Positions 7,618 through 64,000 of a stretch of 64,000 nt of DNA are shown one piece after another. Where the stretch lies: assembly GCA_964016885.1 (NCBI GenBank), contig OZ024749.1:28458001-28522000 (forward strand). Direction: 5' to 3'. A program made the position numbers and the translations under genes. Each line of letters starts with the position of its first letter. Positions within the stretch are counted from its first letter, which is position 1. The notes beneath the pieces were generated by a model. It made no database searches. It was not told where the DNA came from and worked only from the letters and a program-made list of their open reading frames with translations. This stretch comes from Eledone cirrhosa. Its lineage: Eukaryota.

Positions 7618-8083
7618 TACAACACCAGGTTTTGTATCTCACAATACTGGATTTTGTATCACAATACCGGGTTTTGTATCTCACAACACCAGGTTTTGTA
7701 TCTCACAACACCAGGTTTTGTATCTCACAGCACCAGGTTTTGTATCTCACAACACCAGGTTTTGTATCTCACAACACCAGGTTTTGTATCTCACAGCACC
7801 AGGTTTTGTATCTCACAGCACCAGGTTTTGTATCTCACAACACCAGGTTTTGTATCTCACAACACCAGGTTTTGTTTCTTACAACACCAGGTTTTGTATC
7901 TCACAACTCCAGGTTTTGTATCTCACAGCACCAGGTTTTGTATCTCACAACTCCAGATTTTGTATCTCACAACACCAGGTTTTGTATCTCACAACACCTG
8001 GTTTTGTATCTCACAACATCCAGTTTTGTCTCTCACAACACCTGGTTTTGTCTGTTACAACACCTGGTTTTGTCTCTTACAGG
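7618..8083. repeat. 22-bp minisatellite (cacaacaccaggttttgtatct)
   Basis: About 21 tandem copies. Confidence 0.92.
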
Positions 8084-10672: not shown

Positions 10673-10699
10673 ATATATATATATTTATTTTATATATAT

Positions 10700-15475: not shown

Positions 15476-15533
15476 GGACCAGCAACTATAAAGTCATTCC
15501 TGCTGGTTACTTGGACCTTATTTCAAGTAAAAG
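15476..15533 (+). CDS. Signal-peptide-like exon ([19 protein letters not shown]), phase 0-1
   Basis: Pyrimidine tract + tttag acceptor, aag|gtaaga donor, 58 bp. Basic residue then hydrophobic core. Joins in frame to the 19446 exon (...[11 protein letters not shown], a plausible cleavage site). ATG must lie in an upstream exon that was not found. Confidence 0.65.
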
Positions 15534-35012: not shown

Positions 35013-38000
35013 TCCGATATTGCAACTTTTCCGTTAAAATCCAGTGGATGGTGCTTCGGGAATCCTCAAGAATCAAAATGCAGAGAGCATCCAGAGTGAT
35101 CCGCCGATCTTTACGCATGTTTTCCTCGGAAGGAGACCTTACTTTTGGGATGGCCCTCTATATAATAACTGCACGAAATTCACACTTGGCGGTAGCGTTC
35201 AACGGGAGCTCCATTCTCAACGGCTGCCAAGCCAAGATTCAGTATCCCAGCGAAGCGCACGCATGCTTGTTTGGGAGTGAAGGAAGCACCAATCAAAAGA
35301 GTGTTGCCAACAGCCGTACGAACAGTTTCTCTGCGTCTACATCGCTTTGGAGACCCTACTTTTGGCATTACCCTCGTATATATATATATATATACGTGGT
35401 GAGGAAACAAGAAGTATAAACTAGTCATCAATAAGTAATATTTATATTCTAGATAGAATATGATATTGTTTCCAAAGTATAATCGAGTGTTTCCAATGAA
35501 AAAAATATGTATTTCTCATAGATTAAATCTTTCTTCACATTTCAGCAAACTTTCGATCTGTAGTTGTCTCATCAACATTAGATGTAACAGATTGTATGGT
35601 TAATAATCAACGTTATCGTCTTGGACGTGAATTTTCATTCACTGAAGGTTGTTTTGAATACCGTTGTATGTGCTACAATAATGGATCTTGGGTGTGTCCT
35701 TCATCTCAATCACGATATACCTGTCGTTTGGATACACATTCAGAAGAAACACCAGGTAAATATTTGATATAAAGCTATTTGTCTCTTTATATATATTTGC
35801 GGCAAATAATCTTCCAACTACAATACATATTATATAACCAATAAGAACCACTCTACATAAATTATATTTATCATCAAGACATAAGTCTTCTGTTAATGCT
35901 TCTTAAATCTGTAAACATTGTGAAATTATTCATGTATTTATATCCTACAAAATATCAATAAAATATGTTTGAAAGATCAGCTGTTAAAAAATTGGATTTG
36001 TCAGTGTTTACGGTGTAAGGTATGTGATTGCTGTAGACAAGTAACTGGTATATGTTTTCTAATTCATTTTAGTGTCAAGCAAACAGTTCTTCGTGATCTT
36101 TAGCGCAAATCCAAACACCTGTTTGGCAAATAATCAGGAATATCCATTAGGACAACGATTCTCATTTGTTTTGGATTGTTTCCAATTTAATTGTGACTGT
36201 TTCTACAATGGATCTTGGGAGTGTCCTGCAGATAGATCAGAATTTGTGTGTAAAGATCCACCAGTACGAGTACCTCCAAGAAAACCAACCTATGACGGTA
36301 AAATATGTTCCAATATATTTGTATTGTTGAAATGTTCTTTCAATTGAAACTACGTTGAGATCTTAATTTCATTGATGTCTCGAATTTATTCCCTTTTCAA
36401 AATGGTACGAAATTACGACATCTTATTTATTAGTATAGAATATGTGAGAGTTCGTGAAAGTATTAATACCTTGCACAGAATTCATTAAATCTCATGTGAA
36501 CCTAAAAATATAAACCCGAAATATTATTTCCTATGCCAAACTCTGAAATAGATTCAATATATATTCTTCGAAATATTTTAATAAAGATTAGTATATTTAT
36601 AACGATTTGAACAGGCTATCATCAAATACAATTCTATTATATTTTAAATATTCCATTATGACCAAGCACCAAGCATATATATAATTTGTTTGAAAAAGAA
36701 AATGGTGGTTTCTATAAATTAAATATAAATACGTAGTGAAACGTGAGACATCATGTATTTCAAATCACGCGAAGAAAAGGGAAATAAACACTTAATATTA
36801 ATATTCTAAATTGAAACACATTTTCTTCCAAAGTATAATCGAATGTTGCCAGTGAAATAAATAAGTATTTCTCATAGATTGAATCTTTCTTCCTATTTCA
36901 GCAAACTTTCGATCTGTAGTTGTCTCATCAACATTAGATGTAACAGATTGTATGGTTAATAATCAACGTTATCGTCTTGGACGTGAATTTTCATTCACTG
37001 AAGGTTGTTTTGAATACCGTTGTATGTGTTACAATAATGGATCTTGGGTGTGTCCTTCATCTCAATCACGATATACCTGTCGTTTGGATCCACATTCAGA
37101 AGAAACACCAGGTAAATATTTGAAATAAAGCTATTGGTCTCTTTATATATATTTGCGGCAAATAATCTTCCAACTACAATACATATTATATAACCAATAA
37201 GAACCACTCTACATAAATTATATTTATCATCAAGACTTAAGTCTTCTGTTAATCTTTCTTACATCTGTAAACATTGTGAAATTATTCATGTATTTACAAC
37301 CTACAAAATGTCAATAAAATATGTTTGAAAGATCAACTGTTAAAAAATTGGATTTGTTAGTGTTTACGGTGTAAGGTATGTGATTGCTGTAAACAAGTAA
37401 CTGGTATATGTTTTCTAATTAATTTTAGTGTCAAGCAAACAGTTTTTCGTGATCGTTAACTCAAACCCAAACACCTGTTTGGCAAATAATCAGGAATATC
37501 CATTAGGACAACGATTTTCATTTGTTTTGGATTGTTTCCGATACAATTGTGACTGTTTCTACAATGGATCTTGGGAATGCCCTGCAGATAGATCAGAATT
37601 TGTGTGTAGAGATCCACCAGTACGAGTACCTCCAAGAAAACCAACCTATGACGGTAAAATATGTTACGATATATTTGTATTGTTGAAATGTTCTTTCAAT
37701 TGAAACTACGTTGAGATCTTAATTTCATTGATGTCTCGAATTTATTGTTTTTTGAAAATGGTACGGAATTACGACATCTTATCTATTAGTATAGAATATG
37801 TGAGAGTTCGTGAAAGTATTAATACCTTACACGGAATTCATTAAATCCTATGTGAACCCAAAAATATAAACCCGAAATATAATTTCCTATGCCAAACTCT
37901 GAAATACATTCAATATATCTTCGAAATATTTTAATAAAGAGTAGTATATTTATAAAGATTTGAACAAGCTATCATCAAGTACAATTCTATTATATTTTAA

Positions 38001-41000
38001 ATATTCCATTATGACCAAGCACCAAGCATATATACAATTTGTTTGAAAAAGAAAATGATGGTTTTGTGTAAAGGAAAGTAACGTAGCCTGCCGGGAGATT
38101 TCTATAAATTAAATATAAATACGTAGTGAAACGTAAGACATGGATTTCAAATCACGTGAAGAAATGGGAGATAAACACTTTGGCAGTATCGGTAGAGGGT
38201 CGGACGCCATGCTTTCCAGCATAGTTACGTCCCTTTACGATCTGAGTTCAAATCCCGCCGAGGTTGACTTTGCCTTTCATCCTTACGGGGTCGATAAAAT
38301 AAAGTACCAGTAATGCACTGGGTAATTGCTGGCCTTGTGCCAAAAGTAGAAACAATTAATATTCTAAATTGAAACACATTTTCTTTCCAAAGTATAATCG
38401 AATGTTGCCAGTGAAATAAATAAGTATTTCTCATAGATTGAATCTTTCTTCATATTTCAGGAAACGTTCGATCTGTAGTTGTCTCATCAACATTAGATGT
38501 AACAGATTGTATGGTTAATAACAAACGTTATCGTCTTGGACGTGAATTTTCATTCACTGAAGGTTGTTTTGAATACCATTGTATGTGTTACAATAATGGA
38601 TCTTGGGTGTGTCCTTCATCTCAATCACGATATACCTGTCGTTTGGATCCACATTCAGAAGAAACACCAGGTAAATATTTGAAATAAAGCTATTTGTCTC
38701 TTTATATATATTTGCGGCAAATAATCTTTCAACTACAATACATATTATATAACCAATAAGAACCATCATCATCATCATCATCATCAACGTTTAACGTCCG
38801 TGTTGCACGCTTGCATGGGTTTTTGACGGGGGTATTTCCCACTTGAGGCAAGAGTGATTGTTTTGCTCGCATAGGACTGTCTGGCGGGTTTTCTACAGCT
38901 GGATGCCCTTCCTAACACCAACCACATTTACAGTGTGGGGCTGGGAGGTTTTTACCGTGTTGCCTACACAGCCACATTACAGCGTGGACTGTCTGGCGGG
39001 TTTTCTACGCCTGGATGCCCTTCCTAACACCAACCACATTTACAGTGTGGGGCTGGGAGGTTTTTACCGTGTTGCCTACACGGCCACATTACAGCGTGGA
39101 CTGTGTGTTTTTTTGTCGTAACACCTACACGATCTCATTTGTTTCGGCCTGGATGTTGTGGCACCAACATAACTTTACATTGAAAGGGGGTGGTGTGGAT
39201 GGGGTGGGAGTGGTGGGACGGGGTGTATTTTGTTAGAGATGCCTACTGACTGTACTAGGTTTTACTTTGTATTTAGGTAAGGCGGGTCTTCTCTATTACT
39301 GAGTACCGCCAAAGGTCTCGGTCCAGTGACATTGTCTTGGAGAGGTGTAAGTGTGTGAGGTCGGAATTTATCAGCTCGTCCCAGGTTTTTCTGGGTCTGC
39401 CTACTCCGTGGCTACCGTCTATCTTTATTGCCCTGCACTTTGTTATACAGCTATCGTCTTTCATGCGCATCACGTGACCATACCAACGTAGCCTTCTCTC
39501 GAGTAAACATCTGATCCCTCTTATTTCTAATTTTTTCCTTAGTTCGTTTATGCTTTGCCGTTCACGTATATTACTATTACACATCCAGCGGAGCATGCAA
39601 GCTTCGTTTCTCTCTAGTCTGCGTATATCCTCTGCACACAATGCCCAGGTCTCACTGCCATGCAACATTGCTGTTCGTATGCAGGCATCATACAACCTGC
39701 CTTTCATTTTCAGGGAGAACCCTTTAGCGGCTAATAGTGGTATAAGCTCTCTGAACTTTTTCCATCCAGTTCTGACTCTAGCTACTGTACTTTCAGAGCA
39801 CCCTCCCCCACTGCTGATTTTGTCACCCAGGTAACGGAAGCTGTCCACTATTTCTATAGAACCCTCTGCGCAGTTGAAAGAGCTAGTATTTTGTGGGCAC
39901 TTGCTGCTACTTATTGCACCAGAGCACCGGCCACATGTAAAATCTATGTTCTTAGTTAGCTTACCTGTGATCCCACTACATCTTTTATGCACCCATACTT
40001 TCCATTTGGGACACAAAATGAAGTTTCTACCTACGCCTTTCCTACACACTGAGCATGGCCACTTCCCGGAAGGGACCGCCGCCTTATTTTCTTTCTTACA
40101 AACTAGCCAGGTTAATTTTAAGGCCTTTTGATTCTAGGCCGTGCTTCCATGTTTGGAATTTTTTCTCTAGCTCGGCCATTGATTCAGCTATGAGTGTTAG
40201 GTCATCTGCGTATAGGAGTTCCCATGGGCAGCCGGTCTTGAACTCCTCTGTTATAGCCTGAAGGGCAATAATAAATAGTAGGGGGCTGAGAACAGAGCCC
40301 TGATGGACGCCAACTTTTACGCTAAATTCTTCACTATATTCGTTGTTAATTCTAACCTTGCTGACTGTTTCTTTATACATGGCTTGTATAGCTCTCACAA
40401 GCCATTCGTCAACACCTAGTTTTCTAAGAGCCCACCAGATAATGGAACGGGGGACTCTGTCGAAGGCTTTCAGCAAGACGACAAAAGCTAAGTATAGGGG
40501 TTTACTTTTAGCTAGGTACTTCTCCTGTAGTTGTCGTACAATGAAAAGAGCGTCTGTGGTACTTTTGCCTGACACAAACCCGAACTGCATTTCATCTAGA
40601 TCAATTCTCTCTCTGATTAGTTACGCTATTACTTTTTCCGTGACCTTCATGACCTGGTCGATTAATTTAATGCCTCTATAGTTACTCCTATCTAGGGCAT
40701 CTCCTTTACCATTATAATAGTTAACGATGATGCTGCTACGCGAGTCCTTCGGAACAACCCCATTCTGTACGACTTGGTTAACTATCCGGGTGACCATGGT
40801 GTGTCCCACCGTACCAGATGCCTTCAGCATCTCAGCAACTATTTCCGAAGGCCCAGCCGCCTTACCCGTCTTCATATCTTTGATTGCCTTACTTATTATA
40901 CTACCTTCGACTAACACTGCTGGTCCCTCTATTGGGTCGATGTGGGGGAGACTGTGTTTCTCCCATTTATTCTCCTCATTTAGTAGCCTTTCGTAGTGAC

Positions 41001-44000
41001 ACTTCCAAGCTACCTTCTTATCAGCGTCGGTGATGGCAAGTACGCCGTCATCATTAAGTACACACTTCTCCCCGACAATATCACGGTTTTCCTTGACACA
41101 TTGCCTAGCAATCCTGAACACCTCACGTTTTTGGTGCTCGCGTTGTAGAACATGTTTGAACTTTCTTTCCTCTGCTTCCCTTCTTGCGAAGTACACTTGT
41201 CTCCTAGCTTTCCTCCTGGCCACTTGATAGTCTTCTCTACTTCCCCCATCCCGCCATACTTTCCAAGCCTGCTTTTTGGCCTTAATTGACCCCTCTACCT
41301 TAATGTTCCACCACCATGTTACTCTCCTCCTGCCTACAGGCCTGCTCCAGCCACAGAATTCGTCTGCCGCCATCAGCAGGTTTGCTTTCAGGAATTCCCA
41401 ATGTTCCTCTATATTGTACGACTCTAATTGCTCTTCCTTACTGTCGAAAGCATCAAGTAGTATGCTTTTAAATTTATTTCTGGCTGTGGGGTCCTTTAGC
41501 TTCCATATTTTTCTCCTGAGGATAGTCCTCTTCTGCTGTCTAGTACGTTTCGTCCTGACTATTAGGTCGCTAAATATCAGTCTATGTTGGGAGGTGCATT
41601 CTTTATGTAGGAGGGATTTAGTGTTTACAACAGACACTCTGTCACGTCTTCTGGTAAGGATATAATCTACCTGGCTTACCACTCTACATAAATTATATTT
41701 TTCATCAAGACGTAAATCTTCTGTTAATCTTTCTAACATCTGTAAACATTCATGTATTTATATCCTAGAAAATGTCAATAAAATATGTTTGAAAGATCAG
41801 CTGTTAAAAAATTGGATTTGTCAGTGTTTACTGTGTAAGGTATGTGATTGCTGTAGACAAGTAACTGGTATATGTTTTCTAATTCATTTTAGTGTCAAGC
41901 AAACAGTTCTTCGTGATCGTTAACTCAAACCCAAACACCTGTTTGGCAAATAATCAGGAATATCCATTAGGACAACGATTTTCATTTGTTTTGGATTGTT
42001 TCCGATACAATTGTGACTGTTTCTACAATGGATCTTGGGAATGCCCTGCAGATAGATCAGAATTTGTGTGTAAAGATCCACCAGTACGAGTACCTCCAAG
42101 AAAACCAACCTATGACGGTAAAATATGTTCCAATATATTTGTATTGTTGAAATGTTCTTTCAATTTAAACTACGTTGAGCTCTTAATTTCATTGTGGTCT
42201 CGAATTTATTGCCTTTTCAAAATGGTACAATATTACGACATCTTATCTATTATAATAGAATATGTGAGAGTTCGTGAAAGTATTAATACCTTGCACAGAA
42301 TTAATTAAATATTATGTGAACCCAAAAATATAAACCCGAAATATAATTTCCTATGCCAAACTCTGAAATAGATTCAATATATCTTCTTCGAAATATTTTA
42401 ATAAAGAATAGTATATTTATAAGGATTTGAACAGGCTATCATCAAATACAATTCTATTTTATTTTAAATATTACATTATGACAAAGTACCAAGCATATAT
42501 ACAATTTGTTTGAAAAAGAAAATGGTGGTTTTGTGTAAAGGAAAGTAAGGTAGCCTGCCGGGAGATTTCTATAAATTAAATACGTAGTGAAACCTGAGAG
42601 ATGGATTTCAAATCACGTGAAGAAATGGGAGATAAACACTTGATATTAATATTCTAAATTGAAACACATTTTCTTCCAAAGTATAATCGAATGTTGCCAG
42701 TGAAATAAATAAGTATTTCTCATAGATTGAATCTTTCTTCCTATTTCAGCAAACTTTCGATCTGTAGTTGTCTCATCAACATTAGATGTAACAGATTGTA
42801 TGGTTAATAATCAACGTTATCGTCTTGGACGTGAATTTTCATTCACTGAAGGTTGTTTTGAATACCATTGTATGTGTTACAATAATGGATCTTGGGTGTG
42901 TCCTTCATCTCAATCACGATATACCTGTCGTTTGGATCCACATTCAAGAGAAACACCAGGTAAATATTTGAAATAAAGCTATTTGTCTCTTTATATATAT
43001 TTGCGGCAAATAATCTTCCAACTATAATACATATTCTATAACCAATAAGAACCACTCTACATGAATTATATTTTTCATCAAAACGTAAATCTTCTGTTAA
43101 TCTTTCTTACATCTGTAAACATTCATGTATTTATATCCTAGAAAATGTCAATAAAATATGTTTGTAAGATCAGCTGTTAAAAAATTGGATTTGTCAGTGT
43201 TTACTGTGTAAGGTATGTGATTGCTGTAGACAAGTAACTGGTATATGTTTTCTAATTCATTTTAGTGTCAAGCAAACAGTTCTTCGTGATCGTTAACTCA
43301 AACCCAAACACCTGTTTGGCAAATAATCAGGAATATCCATTAGGACAACGATTTTCATTTGTTTTGGATTGTTTCCGATACAATTGTGACTGTTTCTACA
43401 ATGGATCTTGGGAATGCCCTGCAGATAGATCAGAATTTGTGTGTAGAGATCCACCAGTACGAGTACCTCCAAGAAAACCAACCAATGACGGTAAAATATG
43501 TTCCAATATATTTGTATTGTTGAAATGTTCTTTCAATTGAAACTACGTTGAGATCTTAATTTCATTGATGTCTCGAATTTATTCCCTTTTCAAAATGGTA
43601 CGAAATTACGACATCTTATCTATTAGTATAGAATATGTGAGAGTTCGTGAAAGTATTGATACCTTGCGCGGAATTCATTAAATCTTATGTGAACCTAAAA
43701 ATATAAACCCGAAATGTTATTTCCTATGCCAAACTCTGAAATAGATTCAAAATATATTCTTCGAAATATTTTAATAAAGATTAGTATATTTATAAGGATT
43801 TGAACAGTTTATCATTAAATACAATTCTATTTTATTTTAAATATTACATTATGACCAAGCACCAAGCATATATACAATTTGTTTGAAAAAGAAAATGGTG
43901 GTTTTGTGTAAAGGAAAGTATCGTAGCCTGCTGCGAGATTTCTATGAATTAAATATAAATACGTAGTGAAACGTAAGACATGGATTTCAAATCACGTGAA

Positions 44001-53000: not shown

Positions 53001-56000
53001 ATTTACAACCTACAAAATGTCAATAAAATATGTTTGAAAGATCAGCTGTTAAAAAATTGGATTTGTTAGTGTTTACGGTGTAAGGTATGTGATTGCTGTA
53101 AACAAGTAACTGGTATATGTTTTCCAATTCATTTTAGTGTCAAGCAAACAGTTCTTCGTGATCGTTAACTCAAATCCAAACACCTGTTTGGCAAATAATC
53201 AGGAATATCCATTAGGACAACGATTTTCATTTGTTCTGGATTGTTTCCGATACAATTGTGACTGTTTCTACAATGGATCTTGGGAATGCCCTGCAGATAG
53301 ATCAGAATTTGTGTGTAAAGATCCACCAGTACGAGTACCTCCAAGAAAACCAACCAATGACGGTAAAATATGTTCCAATATATATTTGTATTGTTGAAAT
53401 GTTCTTTCAATTGAAACTACGTTGAGATCTTAATTTCATTGATGTCTCGAATTTATTCCCTTTTCAAAATGGTACGAAATTACGACATCTTATCTATTAG
53501 TATAGAATATGTGAGAGTTCGTGAAAGTATTAATACGTAGCACGGAATTCATTAAATCTTATGTGAACCTAAAAATATGAACCCGAAATGTTATTTCCTA
53601 TGCCAAACTCTGAAATAGATTCAAAATATATTATCGAAATATTTTAATAAAGATTAGTATATTTATAAGGATTTGAACAGTTTATCATTAAATACAATTC
53701 TATTTTATTTTAAATATTACATTATGACCAAGCACCAAGCATATATACAATTTGTTTGAAAAAGAAAATGGTGGTTTTGTGTAAAGGAAAGTATCGTAGC
53801 CTGCTGCGAGATTTCTATGAATTAAATATAAATACGTAGTGAAACGTAAGACATGGATTTCAAATCACGTGAAGAAATGGGAGATAAAAACTTAATATTA
53901 ATATTCTAAATAGAAACACATTTTCTTTCCAAAGTATAATCGAATGTTGCCAGTGAAATAAATAAGTATTTCTCATAGATTGAATCTTTCTTCATATTTC
54001 AGGAAACGTTCGATCTGTAGTTGTCTCATCAACATTAGATGTAACAGATTGTATGGTTAATAATCAACGTTATCGTCTTGGACGTGAATTTTCATTCACT
54101 GAAGGTTGTTTTGAATACCGTTGTATGTGTTACAATAATGGATCTTGGGTGTGTCCTTCATCTCAATCACGATATACCTGTCGTTTGGATCCACATTCAG
54201 AAGAAACACCAGGTAAATATTTGAAATAAAGCTATTTGTGTCTTTATATATATTTGTGGCAAATAATCTTCCAACTACAATACATATTCTATAACCAATA
54301 AGAACCACTCTACATGAATTATATTTATCATCAAGACATAAATCTTCTGTTAATCTTTCTTACATCTGTAAACATTCATGTATTTATATCCTACAAAATG
54401 TCAATAAAATATGTTTGAAAGATCAGCTGTTAAAAAATTGGATTTGCTAGTGGTTACGGTGTAAGGTATGTGATTGCTGTAGACAAGTAACTGGTATATG
54501 TTTTCTAATTCATTTTAGTGTCAAGCAAACAGTTCTTCGTGATCGTTAACTCAAATCCAAACACCTGTTTGGCAAATAATCAGGAATATCCATTAGGACA
54601 ACGATTTTCATTTGTTTTGGATTGTTTCCGATACAATTGTGACTGTTTCTACAATGGATCTTGGGAATGTCCTGCAGATAGATCAGAATTTGTGTGTAGA
54701 GATCCACCAGTACGAGTACCTCCAAGAAAACCAACCAATGACGGTAAAATATGTTCCAATATATTTGTATTGTTGAAATGTTCTTTCAATTGAAACTACG
54801 TTGAGATCTTAATTTCATTGATGTCTCGAATTTATTCCCTTTTCAAAATGGTACGAAATTACGACATCTTATCTATTAGTATAGAATATGTGAGAGTTCG
54901 TGAAAGTATTAATAACTTGCGCGGAATTCATTAAATCTTATGTGAACCTAAAAATATAAACCCGAAATATTATTTCCTATGCCAAACTCTGAAATAGATT
55001 CAATATATCTTTTTCGAAATATTTTAATAAAGTTTAGTATATTTATAAGGATTTGAACAGGCTATCATCAAATACAATTCTATTTTATTTTAAATATTAC
55101 ATTATGACCAAGCACCAAGCATATATACAATTTGTTTGAAAAAGAAAATTGTGGTTTTGTGTAAAGGAAAGTAACGTAGCCTGCCGCGAGATTTCTATGA
55201 ATTAAATATAAATACGTAGTGAAACGTAAGACATGGATTTCAAATCACGTGAAGAAATGGGAGATAAACACTTAATATTAATATTCTAAATTGAAACACA
55301 TTTTCTTTCCAAAGTATAATCGAATGTTGCCACTGAAATAAATAAGTATTTCTCATAGATTGAATCTTTCTTCATATTTCAGGAAACGTTCGATCTGTAG
55401 TTGTCTCATCAACATTAGATGTAACAGATTGTATGGTTAATAACAAACGTTATCGTCTTGGACGTGAATTTTCATTCACTGAAGGTTGTTTTGAATACCG
55501 TTGTATGTGTTACAATAATGGATCTTGGGTGTGTCCTTCATCTCAATCACGATATACCTGTCGTTTGGATACACATTCAGAAGAAACACCAGGTAAATAT
55601 TTGATATAAAGCTATTTGTCTCTTTATATATATTTGCGGCAAATAATCTTCCAACTACAATACAAATTATATAACCAATAAGAACCACTCTACATAAATT
55701 ATATTTATCATCAAGACTTAAGTCTTCTGTTAATCTTTGTAAAATCTGTAAACATTGTGAAATTATTCATGTATTTACAACCTACAAAATGTCAATAAAA
55801 TATGTTTGAAAGATCAGCTGTTAAAAAATTGGATTTGTTAGTGTTTACGGTGTAAGGTATGTGATTGCTGTAAACAAGTAACTGGTATATGTTTTCCAAT
55901 TCATTTTAGTGTCAAGCAAACAGTTCTTCGTGATCGTTAACTCAAATCCAAACACCTGTTTGGCAAATAATCAGGAATATCAATTAGGACAACAATTTTC

Positions 56001-59000
56001 ATTTGTTCTGGATTGTTTCCGATACAATTGTGACTGTTTCTACAATGGATCTTGGGAATGCCCTGCAGATAGATCAGAATTTGTGTGTAAAGATCCACCA
56101 GTACGAGTACCTCCAAGAAAACCAACCAATGACGGTAAAATATGTTCCAATATATTTGTATTGTTGAAATGTTCTTTCAATTGAAACTACGTTGAGATCT
56201 TAATTTCATTGATGTCTCGAATTTATTCCCTTTTCAAAATGGTACGAAATTACGACATCTTATCTATTAGTATAGAATATGTGAGAGTTCGTGAAAGTAT
56301 TAATACGTTGCACGGAATTCATTAAATCTTATGTGAACCTAAAAATATAAACCCGAAATATTATTTCCTATGCCAAACTCTGAAATAGATTCAAAATATA
56401 TTCTTCGAAATATTTTAATAAAGATTAGTATATTTATAAGGATTTGAACAGTTTATCATTAAATACAATTCTATTTCATTTTAAATATTACATTATGACC
56501 AAGCACCAAGCATATATACAATTTGTTTGAAAAAGAAAATGGTGGTTTTGTGTAAAGGAAAGTATCGTAGCCTGCCGCGAGATTTCTATGAATTAAATAT
56601 AAATACGTAGTGAAACGTAAGACATGGATTTCAAATCACGTGAAGAAATGGGAGATAAAAACTTAATATTAATATTCTAAATAGAAACACATTTTCTTTC
56701 CAAAGTATAATCGAATGTTGCCAGTGAAATAAATAAGTATTTCTCATAGATTGAATCTTTCTTCATATTTCAGGAAACGTTCGATCTGTAGTTGTCTCAT
56801 CAACATTAGATGTAACAGATTGTATGGTTAATAATCAACGTTATCGTCTTGGACGTGAATTTTCATTCACTGAAGGTTGTTTTGAATACCGTTGTATGTG
56901 TTACAATAATGGATCTTGGGTGTGTCCTTCATCTCAATCACGATATACCTGTCGTTTGGATCCACATTCAGAAGAAACACCAGGTAAATATTTGAAATAA
57001 AGCTATTTGTGTCTTTATATATATTTGCGGCAAATAATCTTCCAACTACAATACATATTCTATAACCAATAAGAACCACTCTACATGAATTATATTTATC
57101 ATCAAGACATAAATCTTCTGTTAATCTTTCTTACATCTGTAAACATTCATGTATTTATATCCTACAAAATGTCAATAAAATATGTTTGAAAGATCAGCTG
57201 TTAAAAAATTGGATTTGCTAGTGGTTACGGTGTAAGGTATGTGATTGCTGTAGACAAGTAACTGGTATATGTTTTCTAATTCATTTTAGTGTCAAGCAAA
57301 CAGTTCTTCGTGATCGTTAACTCAAATCCAAACACCTGTTTGGCAAATAATCAGGAATATCCATTAGGACAACGATTTTCATTTGTTTTGGATTGTTTCC
57401 GATACAATTGTGACTGTTTCTACAATGGATCTTGGGAATGTCCTGCAGATAGATCAGAATTTGTGTGTAGAGATCCACCAGTACGAGTACCTCCAAGAAA
57501 ACCAACCAATGACGGTAAAATATGTTCCAATATATTTGTATTGTTGAAATGTTCTTTCAATTGAAACTACGTTGAGATCTTAATTTCATTGATGTCTCGA
57601 ATTTATTCCCTTTTCAAAATGGTACGAAATTACGACATCTTATCTATTAGTATAGAATATGTGAGAGTTCGTGAAAGTATTAATAACTTGCGCGGAATTC
57701 ATTAAATCTTATGTGAACCTAAAAATATAAACCCGAAATATTATTTCCTATGCCAAACTCTGAAATAGATTCAATATATCTTTTTCGAAATATTTTAATA
57801 AAGTTTAGTATATTTATAAGGATTTGAACAGGCTATCATCAAATACATTTCTATTTTATTTTAAATATTACATTATGACCAAGCACCAAGCATATATACA
57901 ATTTGTTTGAAAAAGAAAATTGTGGTTTTGTGTAAAGGAAAGTAACGTAGCCTGCCGCGAGATTTCTATGAATTAAATATAAATACGTAGTGAAACGTAA
58001 GACATGGATTTCAAATCACGTGAAGAAATGGGAGATAAACACTTAATATTAATATTCTAAATTGAAACACATTTTCTTTCCAAAGTATAATCGAATGTTG
58101 CCACTGAAATAAATAAGTATTTCTCATAGATTGAATCTTTCTTCATATTTCAGGAAACGTTCGATCTGTAGTTGTCTCATCAACATTAGATGTAACAGAT
58201 TGTATGGTTAATAACAAACGTTATCGTCTTGGACGTGAATTTTCATTCACTGAAGGTTGTTTTGAATACCGTTGTATGTGTTACAATAATGGATCTTGGG
58301 TGTGTCCTTCATCTCAATCACGATATACCTGTCGTTTGGATACACATTCAGAAGAAACACCAGGTAAATATTTGATATAAAGCTATTTGTCTCTTTATAT
58401 ATATTTGCGGCAAATAATCTTCCAACTACAATACAAATTATATAACCAATAAGAACCACTCTACATAAATTATATTTATCATCAAGACTTAAGTCTTCTG
58501 TTAATTTTTGTAAAATCTGTAAACATTGTGAAATTATTCATGTATTTACAACCTACAAAATGTCAATAAAATATGTTTGAAAGATCAGCTGTTAAAAAAT
58601 TGGATTTGTTAGTGTTTACGGTGTAAGGTATGTGATTGCTGTAAACAAGTAACTGGTATATGTTTTCCAATTCATTTTAGTGTCAAGCAAACAGTTCTTC
58701 GTGATCGTTAACTCAAATCCAAACACCTGTTTGGCAAATAATCAGGAATATCCATTAGGTCAACGATTTTCATTTGTTCTGGATTGTTTCCGATACAATT
58801 GTGACTGTTTCTACAATGGATCTTGGGAATGCCCTGCAGATAGATCAGAATTTGTGTGTAAAGATCCACCAGTACGAGTACCTCCAAGAAAACCAACCAA
58901 TGACGGTAAAATATGTTCCAATATATTTGTATTGTTGAAATGTTCTTTCAATTGAAACTACGTTGAGATCTTAATTTCATTGATGTCTCGAATTTATTCC

Positions 59001-62000
59001 CTTTTCAAAATGGTACGAAATTACAACATCTTATCTATTAGTATAGAATATGTGAGAGTTCGTGAAAGTATTAATACGTAGCACGGAATTCATTAAATCT
59101 TATGTGAACCTAAAAATATGAACCCGAAATGTTATTTCCTATACCAAACTCTGAAATAGATTCAAAATATATTCTTCGAAATATTTTAATAAAGATTAGT
59201 ATATTTATAAGGATTTGAACAGTTTATCATTAAATACAATTCTATTTTATTTTAAATATTACATTATGACCAAGCACCAAGCATATATACAATTTGTTTG
59301 AAAAAGAAAATGGTGGTTTTGTGTAAAGGAAAGTATCGTAGCCTGCTGCGAGATTTCTATGAATTAAATATAAATACGTAGTGAAACGTAAGACATGGAT
59401 TTCAAATCACGTGAAGAAATGGGAGATAAAAACTTAATATTAATATTCTAAATAGAAACACATTTTTTTCCAAAGTATAATCGAATGTTGCCAGTGAAAT
59501 AAATAAGTATTTCTCATAGATTGAATCTTTCTTCATATTTCAGGAAACGTTCGATCTGTAGTTGTCTCATCAACATTAGATGTAACAGATTGTATGGTTA
59601 ATAATCAACGTTATCGTCTTGGACGTGAATTTTCATTCACTGAAGGTTGTTTTGAATACCGTTGTATGTGTTACAATAATGGATCTTGGGTGTGTCCTTC
59701 ATCTCAATCACGATATACCTGTCGTTTGGATCCACATTCAGAAGAAACACCAGGTAAATATTTGAAATAAAGCTATTTGTGTCTTTATATATATTTGCGG
59801 CAAATAATCTTCCAACTACAATACATATTCTATAACCAATAAGAACCACTCTACATGAATTATATTTATCATCAAGACATAAATCTTCTGTTAATCTTTC
59901 TTACATCTGTAAACATTCATGTATTTATATCCTACAAAATGTCAATAAAATATGTTTGAAAGATCAGCTGTTAAAAAATTGGATTTGCTAGTGGTTACGG
60001 TGTAAGGTATGTGATTGCTGTAGACAAGTAACTGGTATATGTTTTCTAATTCATTTTAGTGTCAAGCAAACAGTTCTTCGTGATCGTTAACTCAAATCCA
60101 AACACCTGTTTGGCAAATAATCAGGAATATCCATTAGGACAACGATTTTCATTTGTTTTGGATTGTTTCCGATACAATTGTGACTGTTTCTACAATGGAT
60201 CTTGGGAATGTCCTGCAGATAGATCAGAATTTGTGTGTAGAGATCCACCAGTACGAGTACCTCCAAGAAAACCAACCAATGACGGTAAAATATGTTCCAA
60301 TATATTTGTATTGTTGAAATGTTCTTTCAATTGAAACTACGTTGAGATCTTAATTTCATTGATGTCTCGAATTTATTCCCTTTTCAAAATGGTACGAAAT
60401 TACGACATCTTATCTATTAGTATAGAATATGTGAGAGTTCGTGAAAGTATTAATAACTTGCGCGGAATTCATTAAATCTTATGTGAACCTAAAAATATAA
60501 ACCCGAAATATTATTTCCTATGCCAAACTCTGAAATAGATTCAATATATCTTTTTCGAAATATTTTAATAAAGTTTAGTATATTTATAAGGATTTGAACA
60601 GGCTATCATCAAATACAATTCTATTTTATTTTAAATATTACATTATGACCAAGCACCAAGCATATATACAATTTGTTTGAAAAAGAAAATTGTGGTTTTG
60701 TGTAAAGGAAAGTAACGTAGCCTGCCGCGAGATTTCTATGAATTAAATATAAATACGTAGTGAAACGTAAGACATGGATTTCAAATCACGTGAAGAAATG
60801 GGAGATAAACACTTAATATTCTAAATTGAAACACATTTTCTTTCCAAAGTATAATCGAATGTTGCCACTGAAATAAATAAGTATTTCTCATAGATTGAAT
60901 CTTTCTTCATATTTCAGGAAACGTTCGATCTGTAGTTGTCTCATCAACATTAGATGTAACAGATTGTATGGTTAATAACAAACGTTATCGTCTTGGACGT
61001 GAATTTTCATTCACTGAAGGTTGTTTTGAATACCGTTGTATGTGTTACAATAATGGATCTTGGGTGTGTCCTTCATCTCAATCACGATATACCTGTCGTT
61101 TGGATACACATTCAGAAGAAACACCAGGTAAATATTTGATATAAAGCTATTTGTCTCTTTATATATATTTGCGGCAAATAATCTTCCAACTACAATACAA
61201 ATTATATAACCAATAAGAACCACTCTACATAAATTATATTTATCATCAAGACTTAAGTCTTCTGTTAATCTTTGTAAAATCTGTAAACATTGTGAAATTA
61301 TTCATGTATTTACAACCTACAAAATGTCAATAAAATATGTTTGAAAGATCAGCTGTTAAAAAATTGGATTTGTTAGTGTTTACGGTGTAAGGTATGTGAT
61401 TGCTGTAAACAAGTAACTGGTATATGTTTTCCAATTCATTTTAGTGTCAAGCAAACAGTTCTTCGTGATCGTTAACTCAAATCCAAACACCTGTTTGGCA
61501 AATAATCAGGAATATCAATTAGGACAACAATTTTCATTTGTTCTGGATTGTTTCCGATACAATTGTGACTGTTTCTACAATGGATCTTGGGAATGCCCTG
61601 CAGATAGATCAGAATTTGTGTGTAAAGATCCACCAGTACGAGTACCTCCAAGAAAACCAACCAATGACGGTAAAATATGTTCCAATATATTTGTATTGTT
61701 GAAATGTTCTTTCAATTGAAACTACGTTGAGATCTTAATTTCATTGATGTCTCGAATTTATTCCCTTTTCAAAATGGTACGAAATTACAACATCTTATCT
61801 ATTAGTATAGAATATGTGAGAGTTCGTGAAAGTATTAATACGTAGCACGGAATTCATTAAATCTTATGTGAACCTAAAAATATGAACCCGAAATGTTATT
61901 TCCTATACCAAACTCTGAAATAGATTCAAAATATATTCTTCGAAATATTTTAATAAAGATTAGTATATTTATAAGGATTTGAACAGTTTATCATTAAATA

Positions 62001-63892
62001 CAATTCTATTTTATTTTAAATATTACATTATGACCAAGCACCAAGCATATATACAATTTGTTTGAAAAAGAAAATGGTGGTTTTGTGTAAAGGAAAGTAT
62101 CGTAGCCTGCTGCGAGATTTCTATGAATTAAATATAAATACGTAGTGAAACGTAAGACATGGATTTCAAATCACGTGAAGAAATGGGAGATAAAAACTTA
62201 ATATTAATATTCTAAATAGAAACACATTTTCTTTCCAAAGTATAATCGAATGTTGCCAGTGAAATAAATAAGTATTTCTCATAGATTGAATCTTTCTTCA
62301 TATTTCAGGAAACGTTCGATCTGTAGTTGTCTCATCAACATTAGATGTAACAGATTGTATGGTTAATAATCAACGTTATCGTCTTGGACGTGAATTTTCA
62401 TTCACTGAAGGTTGTTTTGAATACCGTTGTATGTGTTACAATAATGGATCTTGGGTGTGTCCTTCATCTCAATCACGATATACCTGTCGTTTGGATCCAC
62501 ATTCAGAAGAAACACCAGGTAAATATTTGAAATAAAGCTATTTGTGTCTTTATATATATTTGCGGCAAATAATCTTCCAACTACAATACATATTCTATAA
62601 CCAATAAGAACCACTCTACATGAATTATATTTATCATCAAGACATAAATCTTCTGTTAATCTTTCTTACATCTGTAAACATTCATGTATTTATATCCTAC
62701 AAAATGTCAATAAAATATGTTTGAAAGATCAGCTGTTAAAAAATTGGATTTGCTAGTGGTTACGGTGTAAGGTATGTGATTGCTGTAGACAAGTAACTGG
62801 TATATGTTTTCTAATTCATTTTAGTGTCAAGCAAACAGTTCTTCGTGATCGTTAACTCAAATCCAAACACCTGTTTGGCAAATAATCAGGAATATCCATT
62901 AGGACAACGATTTTCATTTGTTTTGGATTGTTTCCGATACAATTGTGACTGTTTCTACAATGGATCTTGGGAATGTCCTGCAGATAGATCAGAATTTGTG
63001 TGTAGAGATCCACCAGTACGAGTACCTCCAAGAAAACCAACCAATGACGGTAAAATATGTTCCAATATATTTGTATTGTTGAAATGTTCTTTCAATTGAA
63101 ACTACGTTGAGATCTTAATTTCATTGATGTCTCGAATTTATTCCCTTTTCAAAATGGTACGAAATTACGACATCTTATCTATTAGTATAGAATATGTGAG
63201 AGTTCGTGAAAGTATTAATAACTTGCGCGGAATTCATTAAATCTTATGTGAACCTAAAAATATAAACCCGAAATATTATTTCCTATGCCAAACTCTGAAA
63301 TAGATTCAATATATCTTTTTCGAAATATTTTAATAAAGTTTAGTATATTTATAAGGATTTGAACAGGCTATCATCAAATACAATTCTATTTTATTTTAAA
63401 TATTACATTATGACCAAGCACCAAGCATATATACAATTTGTTTGAAAAAGAAAATTGTGGTTTTGTGTAAAGGAAAGTAACGTAGCCTGCCGCGAGATTT
63501 CTATGAATTAAATATAAATACGTAGTGAAACGTAAGACATGGATTTCAAATCACGTGAAGAAATGGGAGATAAACACTTAATATTCTAAATTGAAACACA
63601 TTTTCTTTCCAAAGTATAATCGAATGTTGCCACTGAAATAAATAAGTATTTCTCATAGATTGAATCTTTCTTCATATTTCAGGAAACGTTCGATCTGTAG
63701 TTGTCTCATCAACATTAGATGTAACAGATTGTATGGTTAATAACAAACGTTATCGTCTTGGACGTGAATTTTCATTCACTGAAGGTTGTTTTGAATACCG
63801 TTGTATGTGTTACAATAATGGATCTTGGGTGTGTCCTTCATCTCAATCACGATATACCTGTCGTTTGGATACACATTCAGAAGAAACACCAG
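15476..63892 (+). CDS. Giant multi-exon gene (incomplete at both ends) encoding a probably secreted protein with >=45 tandem 6-Cys modules (VWC/FN1/pacifastin-like)
   Basis: 46 exons read by hand, all with AG/GT boundaries. The 45 module exons are phase 1-1 with lengths divisible by 3 and join into one stop-free frame of ~3,250 aa. Conserved C-x18-C-x4-C-x-C-x7-C-x8-C with GSWxCP. Confidence 0.88.
15565..16200. repeat. Degenerate (GTT/GCT/GAT)n trinucleotide tract
   Basis: Direct reading. Confidence 0.9.
16240..16495. repeat. ~40-bp degenerate minisatellite
   Basis: ctaggtgtgtcac..cactt..gtgtcac..ataatct repeated ~6 times. Confidence 0.7.
16508..18425. repeat. 89-bp satellite built from a 35-bp monomer
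   Basis: ctaacagttagc recurs every 87-89 bp; simple 35-bp unit (gaggtatatatttgaggtctgacagacaggtgggt) at 18182-18330. Confidence 0.9.
19446..19631 (+). CDS. Cys-module exon 1 ([44 protein letters not shown])
   Basis: ttttaag acceptor, G|gtaaaa donor, 186 bp, phase 1-1, six Cys. Confidence 0.88.
19843..20028 (+). CDS. Cys-module exon 2 ([44 protein letters not shown])
   Basis: tttcag acceptor, A|gtaaga donor, 186 bp, phase 1-1. Confidence 0.88.
21161..21487 (-). mobile_element. Two adjacent truncated SINE copies
   Basis: Reverse complement of the family consensus twice. Confidence 0.8.
21498..22160. repeat. Degenerate (GTA/GTG/GCA)n tract
   Basis: Direct reading. Confidence 0.9.
23075..23872. 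repeat. Two adjacent minisatellites (cagtaacca-type; ~20-22-bp cactaactggttttacacacaa)
   Basis: Direct reading. Confidence 0.85.
24164..24379 (+). CDS. Cys-module exon 3 ([44 protein letters not shown])
   Basis: Long polyT tract, tandem TAGCAG acceptor (start 24164 or 24167), C|gtaagt donor, phase 1-1. Confidence 0.88.
25140..25980 (-). mobile_element. Degraded RTE-like LINE 3' fragment
   Basis: FADDMVLL...[10 protein letters not shown]...[11 protein letters not shown] motifs with frameshifts; (GAA)n/(GAC)n tail. Confidence 0.8.
26527..26599 (+). pseudogene. tRNA-Arg(ACG)-derived pseudogene / head of a tRNA-Arg SINE
   Basis: TAGCGCAAAGGATAAGGCACCTGACTACAGATCAAGAAATTCCAGGTTCGACTCCTGGCAAGCTTG matches eukaryotic tRNA-Arg-ACG with a decayed acceptor stem and ACG>ACA. 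Followed by a tail (ggtgccccagcatggcc..cagcc..cggctg) also seen near 19330 and 2365. Confidence 0.75.
26675..27357. mobile_element. Cluster of four SINE copies in -,+,-,- orientation
   Basis: 26675-26842(-), 26851-27034(+), 27045-27209(-), 27213-27357(-). Confidence 0.8.
27660..27851 (+). CDS. Cys-module exon 4 ([44 protein letters not shown])
   Basis: ttacag acceptor, T|gtaagt donor, 192 bp, phase 1-1. Confidence 0.88.
28229..28587. repeat. Near-perfect palindrome, ~180-bp arms, 1-nt loop
   Basis: Centre g at 28408; 2 mismatches seen; embedded in (TA)n. Confidence 0.92.
28477..28540 (+). ncRNA. Minimal type I hammerhead ribozyme motif (mirror copy on - strand at 28276-28339)
   Basis: Stem I attttat/atgaaat; CTGAAGA core; 14-bp stem II with one mismatch; GAAA; short stem III T-ATGT-A; AUA cleavage triplet. 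Confidence 0.7.
28873..29076 (+). CDS. Cys-module exon 5 ([44 protein letters not shown])
   Basis: atccag acceptor, G|gtaata donor, 204 bp, phase 1-1. Confidence 0.87.
29433..29791. mobile_element. MITE-like element with ~55-bp terminal inverted repeats
   Basis: attttctgaaa..agtgactgatcggcctgatttgcatattagcagactgg vs ccagtctgctgatatgcaaatcaggccgatcagtcact..tttcagaaaat. Confidence 0.65.
30061..30230. repeat. Inverted repeat (~48-bp arms) with a nested internal palindrome
   Basis: tagaaaatatatagctttcacc.. / ..ggtgaaagctatatattttcta; inner atgagtattgacgtac|atgtacgtcaatactcat. Confidence 0.85.
30560..30803 (-). mobile_element. RTE-like LINE 3' end fragment
   Basis: [12 protein letters not shown]...LLWEP...[11 protein letters not shown]...DRDRWR C-terminal motif. 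Confidence 0.75.
31061..31247 (-). mobile_element. tRNA-derived SINE
   Basis: Reverse complement of the family consensus. Confidence 0.8.
31678..31899 (+). CDS. Cys-module exon 6 ([44 protein letters not shown])
   Basis: ttatag acceptor, T|gtaagt donor, 222 bp, phase 1-1. Confidence 0.87.
31996..32205 (+). CDS. Cys-module exon 7 ([44 protein letters not shown])
   Basis: ttccag acceptor, A|gtaagg donor, 210 bp, phase 1-1. Confidence 0.87.
33359..33589 (+). CDS. Cys-module exon 8 ([44 protein letters not shown])
   Basis: atgcag acceptor, G|gtaaaa donor, 231 bp, phase 1-1. Confidence 0.87.
34030..34510. repeat. Degenerate ~100-bp tandem repeat
   Basis: gataaggtcgtaatgttgag..ctgtccagt..gatgttatctgaccagc repeated ~4-5 times. 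Confidence 0.75.
35011..35378 (-). mobile_element. Mariner/Tc1-like DNA transposon remnant
   Basis: DRRITLDAL...[15 protein letters not shown] resembles the mariner transposase HTH; terminus TACGAGGGTAATGCCAAAAGTAGG next to TA; a second similar terminus-like copy at ~35133-35162. Confidence 0.65.
35546..35755 (+). CDS. Array exon A, unit 1 ([69 protein letters not shown])
   Basis: tttcag acceptor, CAG|gtaaat donor, 210 bp; missed by the ORF track, which shows only its antisense shadow. Confidence 0.88.
36073..36297 (+). CDS. Array exon B, unit 1 ([44 protein letters not shown])
   Basis: ttttag acceptor, G|gtaaaa donor, 225 bp, phase 1-1. Confidence 0.88.
36902..37111 (+). CDS. Array exon A, unit 2
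   Basis: Intact copy of exon A with AG/GT. Confidence 0.85.
37429..37653 (+). CDS. Array exon B, unit 2
   Basis: Intact copy of exon B with AG/GT. Confidence 0.85.
38181..38357 (+). mobile_element. SINE inserted in the intron before array unit 3
   Basis: Absent from most sister units. Confidence 0.9.
38461..38670 (+). CDS. Array exon A, unit 3
   Basis: Intact copy; downstream intron carries the LINE insertion. Confidence 0.85.
38766..41677 (-). mobile_element. 5'-truncated, inactivated RTE-clade LINE (same family as 10700-13068) in the intron of array unit 3
   Basis: Protein nearly identical to the 655-aa ORF and extends into the endonuclease end (SQVDYIL). In-frame stop at 40621 and ~14-bp frameshifting deletion near 40105. 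(CAT)n tail at 38766; short ACCA duplication relative to the empty site in sister units. Confidence 0.95.
41893..42117 (+). CDS. Array exon B, unit 3
   Basis: Intact copy with AG/GT. Confidence 0.85.
42750..42959 (+). CDS. Array exon A, unit 4
   Basis: Intact copy with AG/GT. Confidence 0.85.
43266..43490 (+). CDS. Array exon B, unit 4
   Basis: Intact copy with AG/GT. Confidence 0.85.
44131..44340 (+). CDS. Array exon A, unit 5
   Basis: Intact copy with AG/GT. Confidence 0.85.
44647..44871 (+). CDS. Array exon B, unit 5
   Basis: Intact copy with AG/GT. Confidence 0.85.
45511..45720 (+). CDS. Array exon A, unit 6
   Basis: Intact copy with AG/GT. Confidence 0.85.
46027..46251 (+). CDS. Array exon B, unit 6
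   Basis: Intact copy with AG/GT. Confidence 0.85.
46891..47100 (+). CDS. Array exon A, unit 7
   Basis: Intact copy with AG/GT. Confidence 0.85.
47407..47631 (+). CDS. Array exon B, unit 7
   Basis: Intact copy with AG/GT. Confidence 0.85.
48171..48355 (+). mobile_element. SINE inserted in the intron before array unit 8
   Basis: Full-length, attaat duplication relative to the empty site. Confidence 0.9.
48459..48668 (+). CDS. Array exon A, unit 8
   Basis: Intact copy with AG/GT. Confidence 0.85.
48975..49199 (+). CDS. Array exon B, unit 8
   Basis: Intact copy with AG/GT. Confidence 0.85.
49840..50049 (+). CDS. Array exon A, unit 9
   Basis: Intact copy with AG/GT. Confidence 0.85.
50367..50591 (+). 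CDS. Array exon B, unit 9
   Basis: Intact copy with AG/GT. Confidence 0.85.
51231..51440 (+). CDS. Array exon A, unit 10
   Basis: Intact copy with AG/GT. Confidence 0.85.
51747..51971 (+). CDS. Array exon B, unit 10
   Basis: Intact copy with AG/GT. Confidence 0.85.
52611..52820 (+). CDS. Array exon A, unit 11
   Basis: Intact copy with AG/GT. Confidence 0.85.
53138..53362 (+). CDS. Array exon B, unit 11
   Basis: Intact copy; the 2-bp insertion that changes the ORF-track tail lies in the intron, supporting the donor site. Confidence 0.85.
54003..54212 (+). CDS. Array exon A, unit 12
   Basis: Intact copy with AG/GT. Confidence 0.85.
54519..54743 (+). CDS. Array exon B, unit 12
   Basis: Intact copy with AG/GT. 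Confidence 0.85.
55383..55592 (+). CDS. Array exon A, unit 13
   Basis: Intact copy with AG/GT. Confidence 0.85.
55910..56134 (+). CDS. Array exon B, unit 13 (EYQLGQQF variant)
   Basis: Intact copy with AG/GT. Confidence 0.85.
56774..56983 (+). CDS. Array exon A, unit 14
   Basis: Intact copy with AG/GT. Confidence 0.85.
57290..57514 (+). CDS. Array exon B, unit 14
   Basis: Intact copy with AG/GT. Confidence 0.85.
58154..58363 (+). CDS. Array exon A, unit 15
   Basis: Intact copy with AG/GT. Confidence 0.85.
58681..58905 (+). CDS. Array exon B, unit 15
   Basis: Intact copy with AG/GT. Confidence 0.85.
59544..59753 (+). CDS. Array exon A, unit 16
   Basis: Intact copy with AG/GT. Confidence 0.85.
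60060..60284 (+). CDS. Array exon B, unit 16
   Basis: Intact copy with AG/GT. Confidence 0.85.
60918..61127 (+). CDS. Array exon A, unit 17
   Basis: Intact copy with AG/GT. Confidence 0.85.
61445..61669 (+). CDS. Array exon B, unit 17 (EYQLGQQF variant)
   Basis: Intact copy with AG/GT. Confidence 0.85.
62309..62518 (+). CDS. Array exon A, unit 18
   Basis: Intact copy with AG/GT. Confidence 0.85.
62825..63049 (+). CDS. Array exon B, unit 18
   Basis: Intact copy with AG/GT. Confidence 0.85.
63683..63892 (+). CDS. Array exon A, unit 19 (partner B beyond window)
   Basis: Intact copy with AG/GT. Confidence 0.85.
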
Positions 63893-64000
63893 GTAAATAT
63901 TTGATATAAAGCTATTTGTCTCTTTATATATATTTGCGGCAAATAATCTTCCAACTACAATACAAATTATATAACCAATAAGAACCACTCTACATAAATT

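Follow-up and report, generated by a model that had tools for sequence, protein, structure and literature searches.

The closest described counterpart of the gene array considered here, from the octopod Eledone cirrhosa, is the kringle IV-2 (KIV-2) repeat of LPA, a 5.6-kb unit of two exons and two introns present in 1 to over 40 copies between people (PMC6314250). Related cases are the Argiope MaSp2 genes, in which two homogenized introns alternate, an arrangement thought by the authors to be unique among eukaryotic genes (PMC9779670), DMBT1, which carries 7–20 SRCR repeats through copy-number variation (PMC4946147), and octovafibrin, an octopus egg-tether protein of 135 kDa with 29 EGF repeats (PMC10336842). 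The stretch analyzed here, termed the window, comprises 64,000 nucleotides of E. cirrhosa contig OZ024749.1 (assembly GCA_964016885.1, positions 28,458,001 to 28,522,000 of the forward strand), and positions given below are those of the window unless stated otherwise. It contains the 5′ part of a 32-unit, two-exon array in one octopod gene, which, with a probability that we put at about 0.7, is kept uniform and resized by unequal exchange while selection preserves the protein. The architecture is of a known kind, since LPA KIV-2, DMBT1, and Argiope MaSp2 share it. To this kind the present case adds a regular dimer level above the two-exon unit, a cassette that has been homogenized repeatedly across octopod lineages, and a protein family that is undescribed.

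The unit of ∼1.38 kb consists of exon A (210 nucleotides, 70 codons), intron 1 (303–317 bp), exon B (225 nucleotides, 75 codons), and intron 2 (∼639 bp), and the array runs on the forward strand over positions 35546..64000 within the window. Using the exons of unit 2 as blastn queries, 19 copies of exon A and 18 of exon B were found in the 64 kb and unit homology stretched from 35444 to 64000, in agreement with the original prediction, made from the letters of the window, that a 70- and 75-residue exon pair repeats to the window end. When the neighboring DNA is included, the whole array has 32 A and 32 B exons in 48 kb and ends 19,643 bases beyond the window (at G000:C9:28541643). In unit 1, exon A (35546..35755, + strand, 210 nucleotides, phase 1-1, supported by blastn and contig joints) encodes a leader strand and a six-Cys module, and exon B (36073..36297, + strand, 225 nucleotides, phase 1-1), which contains IFSAN and FQFNC, encodes a leader strand, a six-Cys module, and a Pro-rich linker. 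All array exons are in phase 1-1 and a multiple of three in length, so that units can be gained or lost in frame. A ttt(c/t)ag acceptor, a gtaaa donor, six Cys, and zero stops are found in all 64 of them, with no loss of a splice site or of a Cys, and what had been stated for the 37 exon copies of the window (37/37 intact) thus extends to the entire array. There are two N-glycosylation sequons per A+B unit. A search of the same genome with exon A gave 32 matches, every one of them inside the array. Unit lengths are irregular due to inserted elements (1559 bp in unit 2, 4289 bp in unit 3, 1568 bp in unit 7), and Tandem Repeats Finder, with its period limit of 500, is blind to the 1.38-kb unit.

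The analogy to KIV-2 that was drawn originally is a fair one, as KIV-2 is likewise a two-exon, two-intron unit, intragenic, present in up to tens of copies in a secreted disulfide-rich protein, and with unit subtypes that are told apart by silent and intronic differences (PMC6314250). In LPA, however, the two exons make up one kringle (PMC6314250), whereas here each exon encodes a whole module within a 1.38-kb unit and the subtypes alternate regularly as a dimer; moreover, polymorphism is shown for LPA while the present array is known from one assembly. In Argiope MaSp2.1a and MaSp2.2a and in the flagelliform spidroins, as here, homogenized introns of two types take turns in marking off the repeats, which in those genes encode a secreted structural protein, and the repeats are hierarchical with lineage-specific homogenization, but the spidroins are of low complexity and rich in Gly/Ala/Pro (PMC9779670), unlike the folded six-Cys modules with an extra dimer level described here. 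Two alternating homogenized introns are also a property of the octopod array and, formally, of LPA KIV-2. DMBT1 is similar in that tandem genomic repeats alter how many cysteine-rich domains a single secreted protein has, but the domain is different, and its microbial binding and copy-number mutation rate are known (PMC4946147) while the octopod array is known from sequence. Octovafibrin is a material protein secreted by octopuses and is likewise built of tandem disulfide modules (PMC10336842), but the gene and the module differ, and the Cys spacing in the array is not the 4-5-8 quoted in the CREMP preprint.

From unit 9 to about unit 26 (49840..64000 in the window, + strand) the array forms a dimeric higher-order core with a period of ∼2,770 bp, in which intron 1 alternates between 317 and 306 bp, neighboring units differ by 2.96%, and next-neighbors by only 0.59%. 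Units 16, 18, and 20 are identical, as are units 19 and 21, and the longest exact run is 3,765 bp at a period of 2765. Inner units are thus nearly identical, as had been noticed, within each class, but there are two alternating classes that lie ∼3% apart. The edge gradient that accompanied this observation is real, but it is lopsided. Unit 1 is the most diverged with respect to exon B within the window (B1 is 4.4% from the majority vs. 0.4–1.8% for B2–B18), while array-wide units 31 and 32 are far more diverged, with introns ∼19% from the majority and exons A32 and B32 at 5.7 and 8.4%, respectively. Several states missing from the core are common to units 1, 31, and 32, and units 1–8 differ from each other by 1–5%. 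In unit 31 (units 31–32 span G000:C9:28539187-28541643), exons that are 2.7–2.9% from the majority lie between introns that are 19% away, which may be due to exon-limited conversion at the array edge, the counts being too small to decide.

Several units are also marked by insertions, which are reverse transcriptase fragments in the case of units 3 and 29 and short elements in that of units 2, 7, and 31. Intron 2 of unit 2 contains a short interspersed insertion (38181..38354, ∼175 bp, unstranded), a putative short interspersed nuclear element with no Rfam match, and unit 7 carries the same element at the corresponding site of its intron 2 (48171..48352, unstranded). Based on their near-identical sequence and position, the two are likely one insertion that was copied between non-adjacent units. 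Intron 1 of unit 3 contains a 2.9-kb retrotransposon fragment of the long interspersed nuclear element (LINE) type on the minus strand (38766..41677) with a broken reading frame (RVT_1, E 1.8e-23). This element is 95% like a copy at 10697-12960, further copies are located ∼90–110 kb beyond the window end, and one of its frames has a weak match to a PHD finger (E 6.5e-5) after the reverse transcriptase.

Exchange and selection can be followed in the differences between units. Among units 1–18 the mean pairwise differences are 1.48% (exon A), 1.82% (exon B), 3.86% (intron 1), and 3.05% (intron 2), and among units 1–30 they are 1.4, 1.8, 3.8, and 3.1%, where the intron distances were computed by projection and are free of inflation by insertions. 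The introns are homogenized too, yet they are about twice as diverged as the exons, and the claim that introns are about as similar between copies as exons is not sustained (∼3–4% vs. 1.4–1.8%). There are 26 synonymous variants over 92.7 sites and 40 replacement variants over 336.3 sites (synonymous divergence, pS, 0.037; replacement divergence, pN, 0.015), with a pN/pS of 0.37–0.42 in every part of the array examined. Replacement changes are depleted and purifying selection acts on top of homogenization. The four-gamete test fails for 1185 of the 3160 pairs of 80 informative sites in units 1–30, with failures climbing from 23% at distances below 50 bp to 42% above 300 bp (permutation p 0.0005). 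This pattern indicates that units exchange sequence and are mosaics, and the insertion common to units 2 and 7 points the same way, in support of the exchange implied by the original prediction.

Evidence that array exons are present in transcripts comes from one of the four sequencing runs used. No run among those listed for these sequences is registered as RNA; the type of the run in question (X1) is unrecorded and it was taken as RNA-derived because its contigs join exons at splice sites, while the three further runs are restriction site-associated DNA (RAD) data. One X1 contig has an A-to-B joint that skips a 317-nucleotide GT..AG intron (depth 311.6), another joins the end of exon B to the start of exon A (depth 134), and three module exons upstream of the array (U6, U7, and U8, see below) are joined in one contig of 1432 nucleotides (depth 5.67). 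The contigs hold the bases of inner units and not of unit 1 at positions 35673, 36184, and 36187. A processed copy was considered as the source of the joints and is unlikely because exon A matches only the 32 array sites. In X1 the array exons are 55–61 times deeper than the upstream exons, which is in line with many transcribed copies, contig depth being a poor measure with an uncalibrated 3′ bias. The RAD runs give only background depth on the array because their cut site at 35262 lies outside of it. In seven bins of unit 1 this off-target depth was 3.5, 4.3, and 2.1 in the three samples vs. 0.35, 0.01, and 0.01 on ten chosen low-repeat bins, and the pooled ratio of ∼27, based on reads too few to compare samples, is rough evidence, and not a count, that the array is multi-copy in other animals as well. 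Just 5′ of the array, at 35040-35394, lies a high-copy interspersed repeat with thousands-fold RAD depth from 35262. Identical units such as 16/18/20 and 19/21 are also what might be seen had the assembler inflated the array or its dimeric core, but this is highly improbable given that only 5 of the 32 units have an identical twin, that the longest exact run is 3.8 kb, that units bear private insertions, that both X1 (55–61-fold) and the RAD data for unit 1 in three other samples (∼27-fold, crude and from few reads) show excess depth, and that Argonauta has a similar array.

The same cassette is repeated in the gene models of other octopods. Argonauta hians (Ahia01_000821300) has 13 A-B pairs at the same gene position, 12 of which are nearly identical, Octopus bimaculoides (LOC106876685) has five pairs and a fragment, O. 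sinensis (LOC115222051) has two pairs, and O. vulgaris (CAI9736705-10) has seven A and five B modules split between two adjacent gene models, the break falling at the array, such that CAI9736705 and CAI9736706-10 look like two halves of one gene. The orthologs share one module order, namely, eight diverged modules (U1–U8), (A-B)n, six further modules (D1–D6), a large exon, and a last module, and identity to the O. bimaculoides protein is 60–65% N-terminal and 65% C-terminal of the array. Modules are 98% (A) and 97% (B) identical within this genome and 93% (A) and 96% (B) within Argonauta, compared to 58–72% between this genome and the four other octopods. In the trees, the modules of this genome form one clade (support 99/98 and 100/100, bootstraps not fully settled), while for B modules the three Octopus species are not resolved. 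The first A module of Argonauta groups with the A modules of Octopus (95/88), away from its own array, and the first A of O. vulgaris groups with the first A of O. sinensis, so that copies at the edges have been retained between species whereas those inside are replaced. As the cassette has been homogenized separately in Argonauta and Octopus, its turnover can be compared from one species to another.

These sequence comparisons favor an old array in continuing concerted evolution over one recent burst. If one A-B pair had been amplified in a recent, lineage-specific burst, and Argonauta and Octopus had acquired their repeats in parallel bursts at an unstable site, this would account for the very young dimeric core with its identical units, for the single clade formed by the modules of this genome, and for the O. 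sinensis model with only two pairs. Such a history is nonetheless unlikely, since the introns of units 31 and 32 are ∼19% from the majority and both edges share states absent from the core, units 1–8 differ by 1–5% and bear insertions of their own, and the position of the first A of Argonauta suggests that the ancestor had two pairs or more. The recent or ongoing expansion put forward in the original prediction is therefore retained for the dimeric core, on the strength of its identical units, but not for the array as a whole. The array, or its hot spot, is likely old because repeats of the pair already exist in Argonauta and in three Octopus species and because the introns at the 3′ edge are 19% diverged. 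According to the array reading that we prefer, repeated unequal crossover and conversion would homogenize the units and change the length of the array, and the edges would keep old states; the core has been re-amplified as a dimer of units. Copy number would vary between animals, and protein-length polymorphism between individuals is plausible.

A protein search yielded 48 homologs among 1,637 candidates, with values of 78–79% over the query in Octopus and 32–38% in bivalves, gastropods, and a chiton. The homologs, among them those of Mytilus, Biomphalaria, Lottia, Haliotis, and the chiton, are labeled either as uncharacterized or as ‘Balbiani ring protein 3-like,’ which is an automatic annotation name. 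The repeat motif of the Chironomus Balbiani ring 3/sp185 protein is C-X-C-X-C, and CXCXC is present in the modules of the large exon and absent from exons A and B. In two diverged homologs, leader segments alternate between the A- and B-type over 13 (P0036) and 11 (P0038) successive modules, the types being defined from the exons of the present gene, and because of this alternation the A-B pair is suggested to be an ancient working unit. Homologs P0036, P0038, and P0013 have 19 diverged A/B-type modules or ∼48 modules of another flavor, and a gastropod homolog from Batillaria (P0018) has an N-terminal C-type lectin domain. No paper on this protein family was found by family name or gene identifiers in a search that left most subscription journals and supplements outside its reach, and the number of the Lottia homolog did not occur in 12 supplementary files of one Lottia shell proteome.

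From its sequence, the array sits inside one gene for a predicted secreted protein of ∼110 small disulfide modules. When the exons are joined, the frame stays open for 7,519 residues, a Met whose exon was not located included, and the array contributes 4,640 of these. Single-module exons number 8 + 64 + 6, a 5.5-kb exon encodes 31 modules, and the last exon encodes one. Upstream of the array are a signal-peptide exon and eight diverged exons of the same module type, and downstream are six more module exons (D1–D6), the 5.5-kb exon, and a short last exon that holds the stop. The exon with most of the predicted signal peptide (15476..15533, + strand, phase 0-1, AG/GT) was recognized when the N-terminus of the O. 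sinensis protein served as a tblastn query over 264 kb (E 2.7e-4). The start ATG must end an exon upstream of 15476, and an ATG-GTAAG located 1.1 kb before the window is an unconfirmed candidate only. On the + strand follow U1 (19446-19631), U2 (19843-20028), U3 (24164-24379, with two in-frame acceptors 3 nucleotides apart), U4 (27660-27851), and U5 (28873-29076), all of which are diverged single-module exons in phase 1-1 with six Cys and are matched one-to-one in Octopus proteins, and then the diverged single-module exons U6 (31678-31899), U7 (31996-32205), and U8 (33359-33589), which are joined in the RNA-derived contig. No anchor sequence is evident at the predicted C-terminus, and hence secretion is predicted. 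Within the reach of a search of the same genome with a 266-residue query the gene is single-copy, as 57/57 matches fall in this locus.

A second, intronless homogenized repeat is present in the 5.5-kb exon (L004:4725-5696), 34.7–35.7 kb beyond the window end. It consists of six eight-Cys modules of 162 bp, five of which differ by 0–5 bases. The Octopus orthologs carry their own run at this place, and seven near-identical modules are found in the Mytilus homolog and six in that of Biomphalaria. Minisatellites with units of 66, 89, and 22 bp, along with a great number of microsatellites, occur in or before the 5′ introns (5985-6855, 16574-18231, 7619-8081, and 23403-23875).

The module itself is not readily assigned to a family. 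AlphaFold predictions for 42 modules gave an all-beta fold with two strands followed by three (predicted local distance difference test, pLDDT, of 83). Fibronectin type I (F1) ranked first by HMMER profile (E 0.022), by Foldseek (E 0.068), and by VIA-align (Z 3.8), with structural matches of 1.8–2.5 root-mean-square deviation over 39–55 residues. No Pfam family was above cut-off for the modules: those for fibronectin type I (PF00039, E 0.039, and PF23003, E 0.053) each matched one of 42 modules below it, as did vWC (PF00093, 1/42, E 0.029; the array exons have six Cys each), and there was one weak laminin/attractin EGF match among the 42 (E 0.035). The ESM Atlas gave no usable match for exon B (best 0.80) or for a stretch of P0036. 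F1 modules have four Cys, and vWC modules have ten Cys in two subdomains. The module would resemble F1, the N-terminal subdomain of vWC, and the beta-microseminoprotein fold in its predicted two-strand plus three-strand arrangement, but it differs in having six Cys, an extra hydrophobic leader strand, and scores below every family cut-off. Judging from these models, its fold is likely that of F1 or of the first vWC subdomain, although it is filed in neither family, and we picture it as a fibronectin type I-like fold with an additional leader strand.

A number of observations weigh against parts of the array reading. The unit counts in the orthologs are those of gene models, which are possibly collapsed or mis-joined, and A-A neighbors occur twice in the O. 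vulgaris model, which breaks strict alternation. Parallel amplification from one or two ancestral pairs would give the same tree as concerted evolution acting continuously. The X1 contigs show joints only and no full-length transcript, and a joint of U8 to the first exon A was absent among the contig matches listed. The depth ratio of 55–61 to 1 exceeds the 32 units of the array, which may be due to 3′ bias, to contig depth being a poor measure, or to a collapsed assembly. All three fibronectin type I matches are weak, and the AlphaFold model of a natural A-B-A-B stretch (from O. bimaculoides P0058, 14 rows) is too poor for contacts between modules (pLDDT 50.6, predicted template modeling score 0.26).

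The signal peptide, the size, the disulfide modules, and the analogies given above suggest that the protein has a structural or scaffolding role. This would be extracellular, in matrix, mucus, or glue, with the A+B pair as the predicted working unit, given that leader types alternate even in diverged homologs, and with length and valency predicted to scale with the number of units. Alternatively, unit number could be functionally neutral, with unequal crossover causing the count to drift and selection serving only to keep modules folded. This agrees with the preferred explanation on mechanism, differs from it only on function, and is a tenable if lesser possibility. The number of pairs ranges from 2 to 13 in octopod gene models and is 32 here, and the intronless 162-bp repeat of the large exon likewise varies in number; on the other hand, 64/64 exons are intact and pN/pS is ∼0.4 throughout the array, although homogenization itself spreads intact copies. 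A third proposal is that of a multivalent pattern-recognition or host-defense protein like DMBT1, whose repeat number sets the avidity of microbe binding. Such a role is rather doubtful. As in DMBT1 (PMC4946147), the protein is predicted to be secreted and has disulfide-rich domain repeats that look copy-variable, volatile homogenized repeats are frequent in host-pathogen proteins (PMC5100051), and the gastropod homolog P0018 has a C-type lectin domain. There is, however, no diversification among the units, as replacement changes are depleted, and no SRCR, lectin, or other effector domain was detected in the 42 modules scanned. Most speculative of all, and improbable at present, is that a two-exon cassette common to octopods, within a giant secreted protein not described so far, never becomes stable and is rewritten and resized in each lineage, with centromere-style coding higher-order repeats in this species, and that the hydrophobic leader strands, alternating between A and B modules, zip onto adjacent fibronectin-like modules and so polymerize a new octopus material (fiber, glue, or mucus scaffold) tuned by unit number between species and individuals.

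In E. cirrhosa the array is a clear invertebrate example of concerted evolution in a coding exon-intron repeat. Several layers can be read in one haplotype, from the old edges through units of middle age with their insertions to the dimeric core, which is very young. The locus also yields a model, nearly complete, of a secreted protein family found across molluscs, whose annotated genes are split or collapsed at the array. If it is true that the protein is a component of a material, it would represent a new biomaterial built from disulfide modules.

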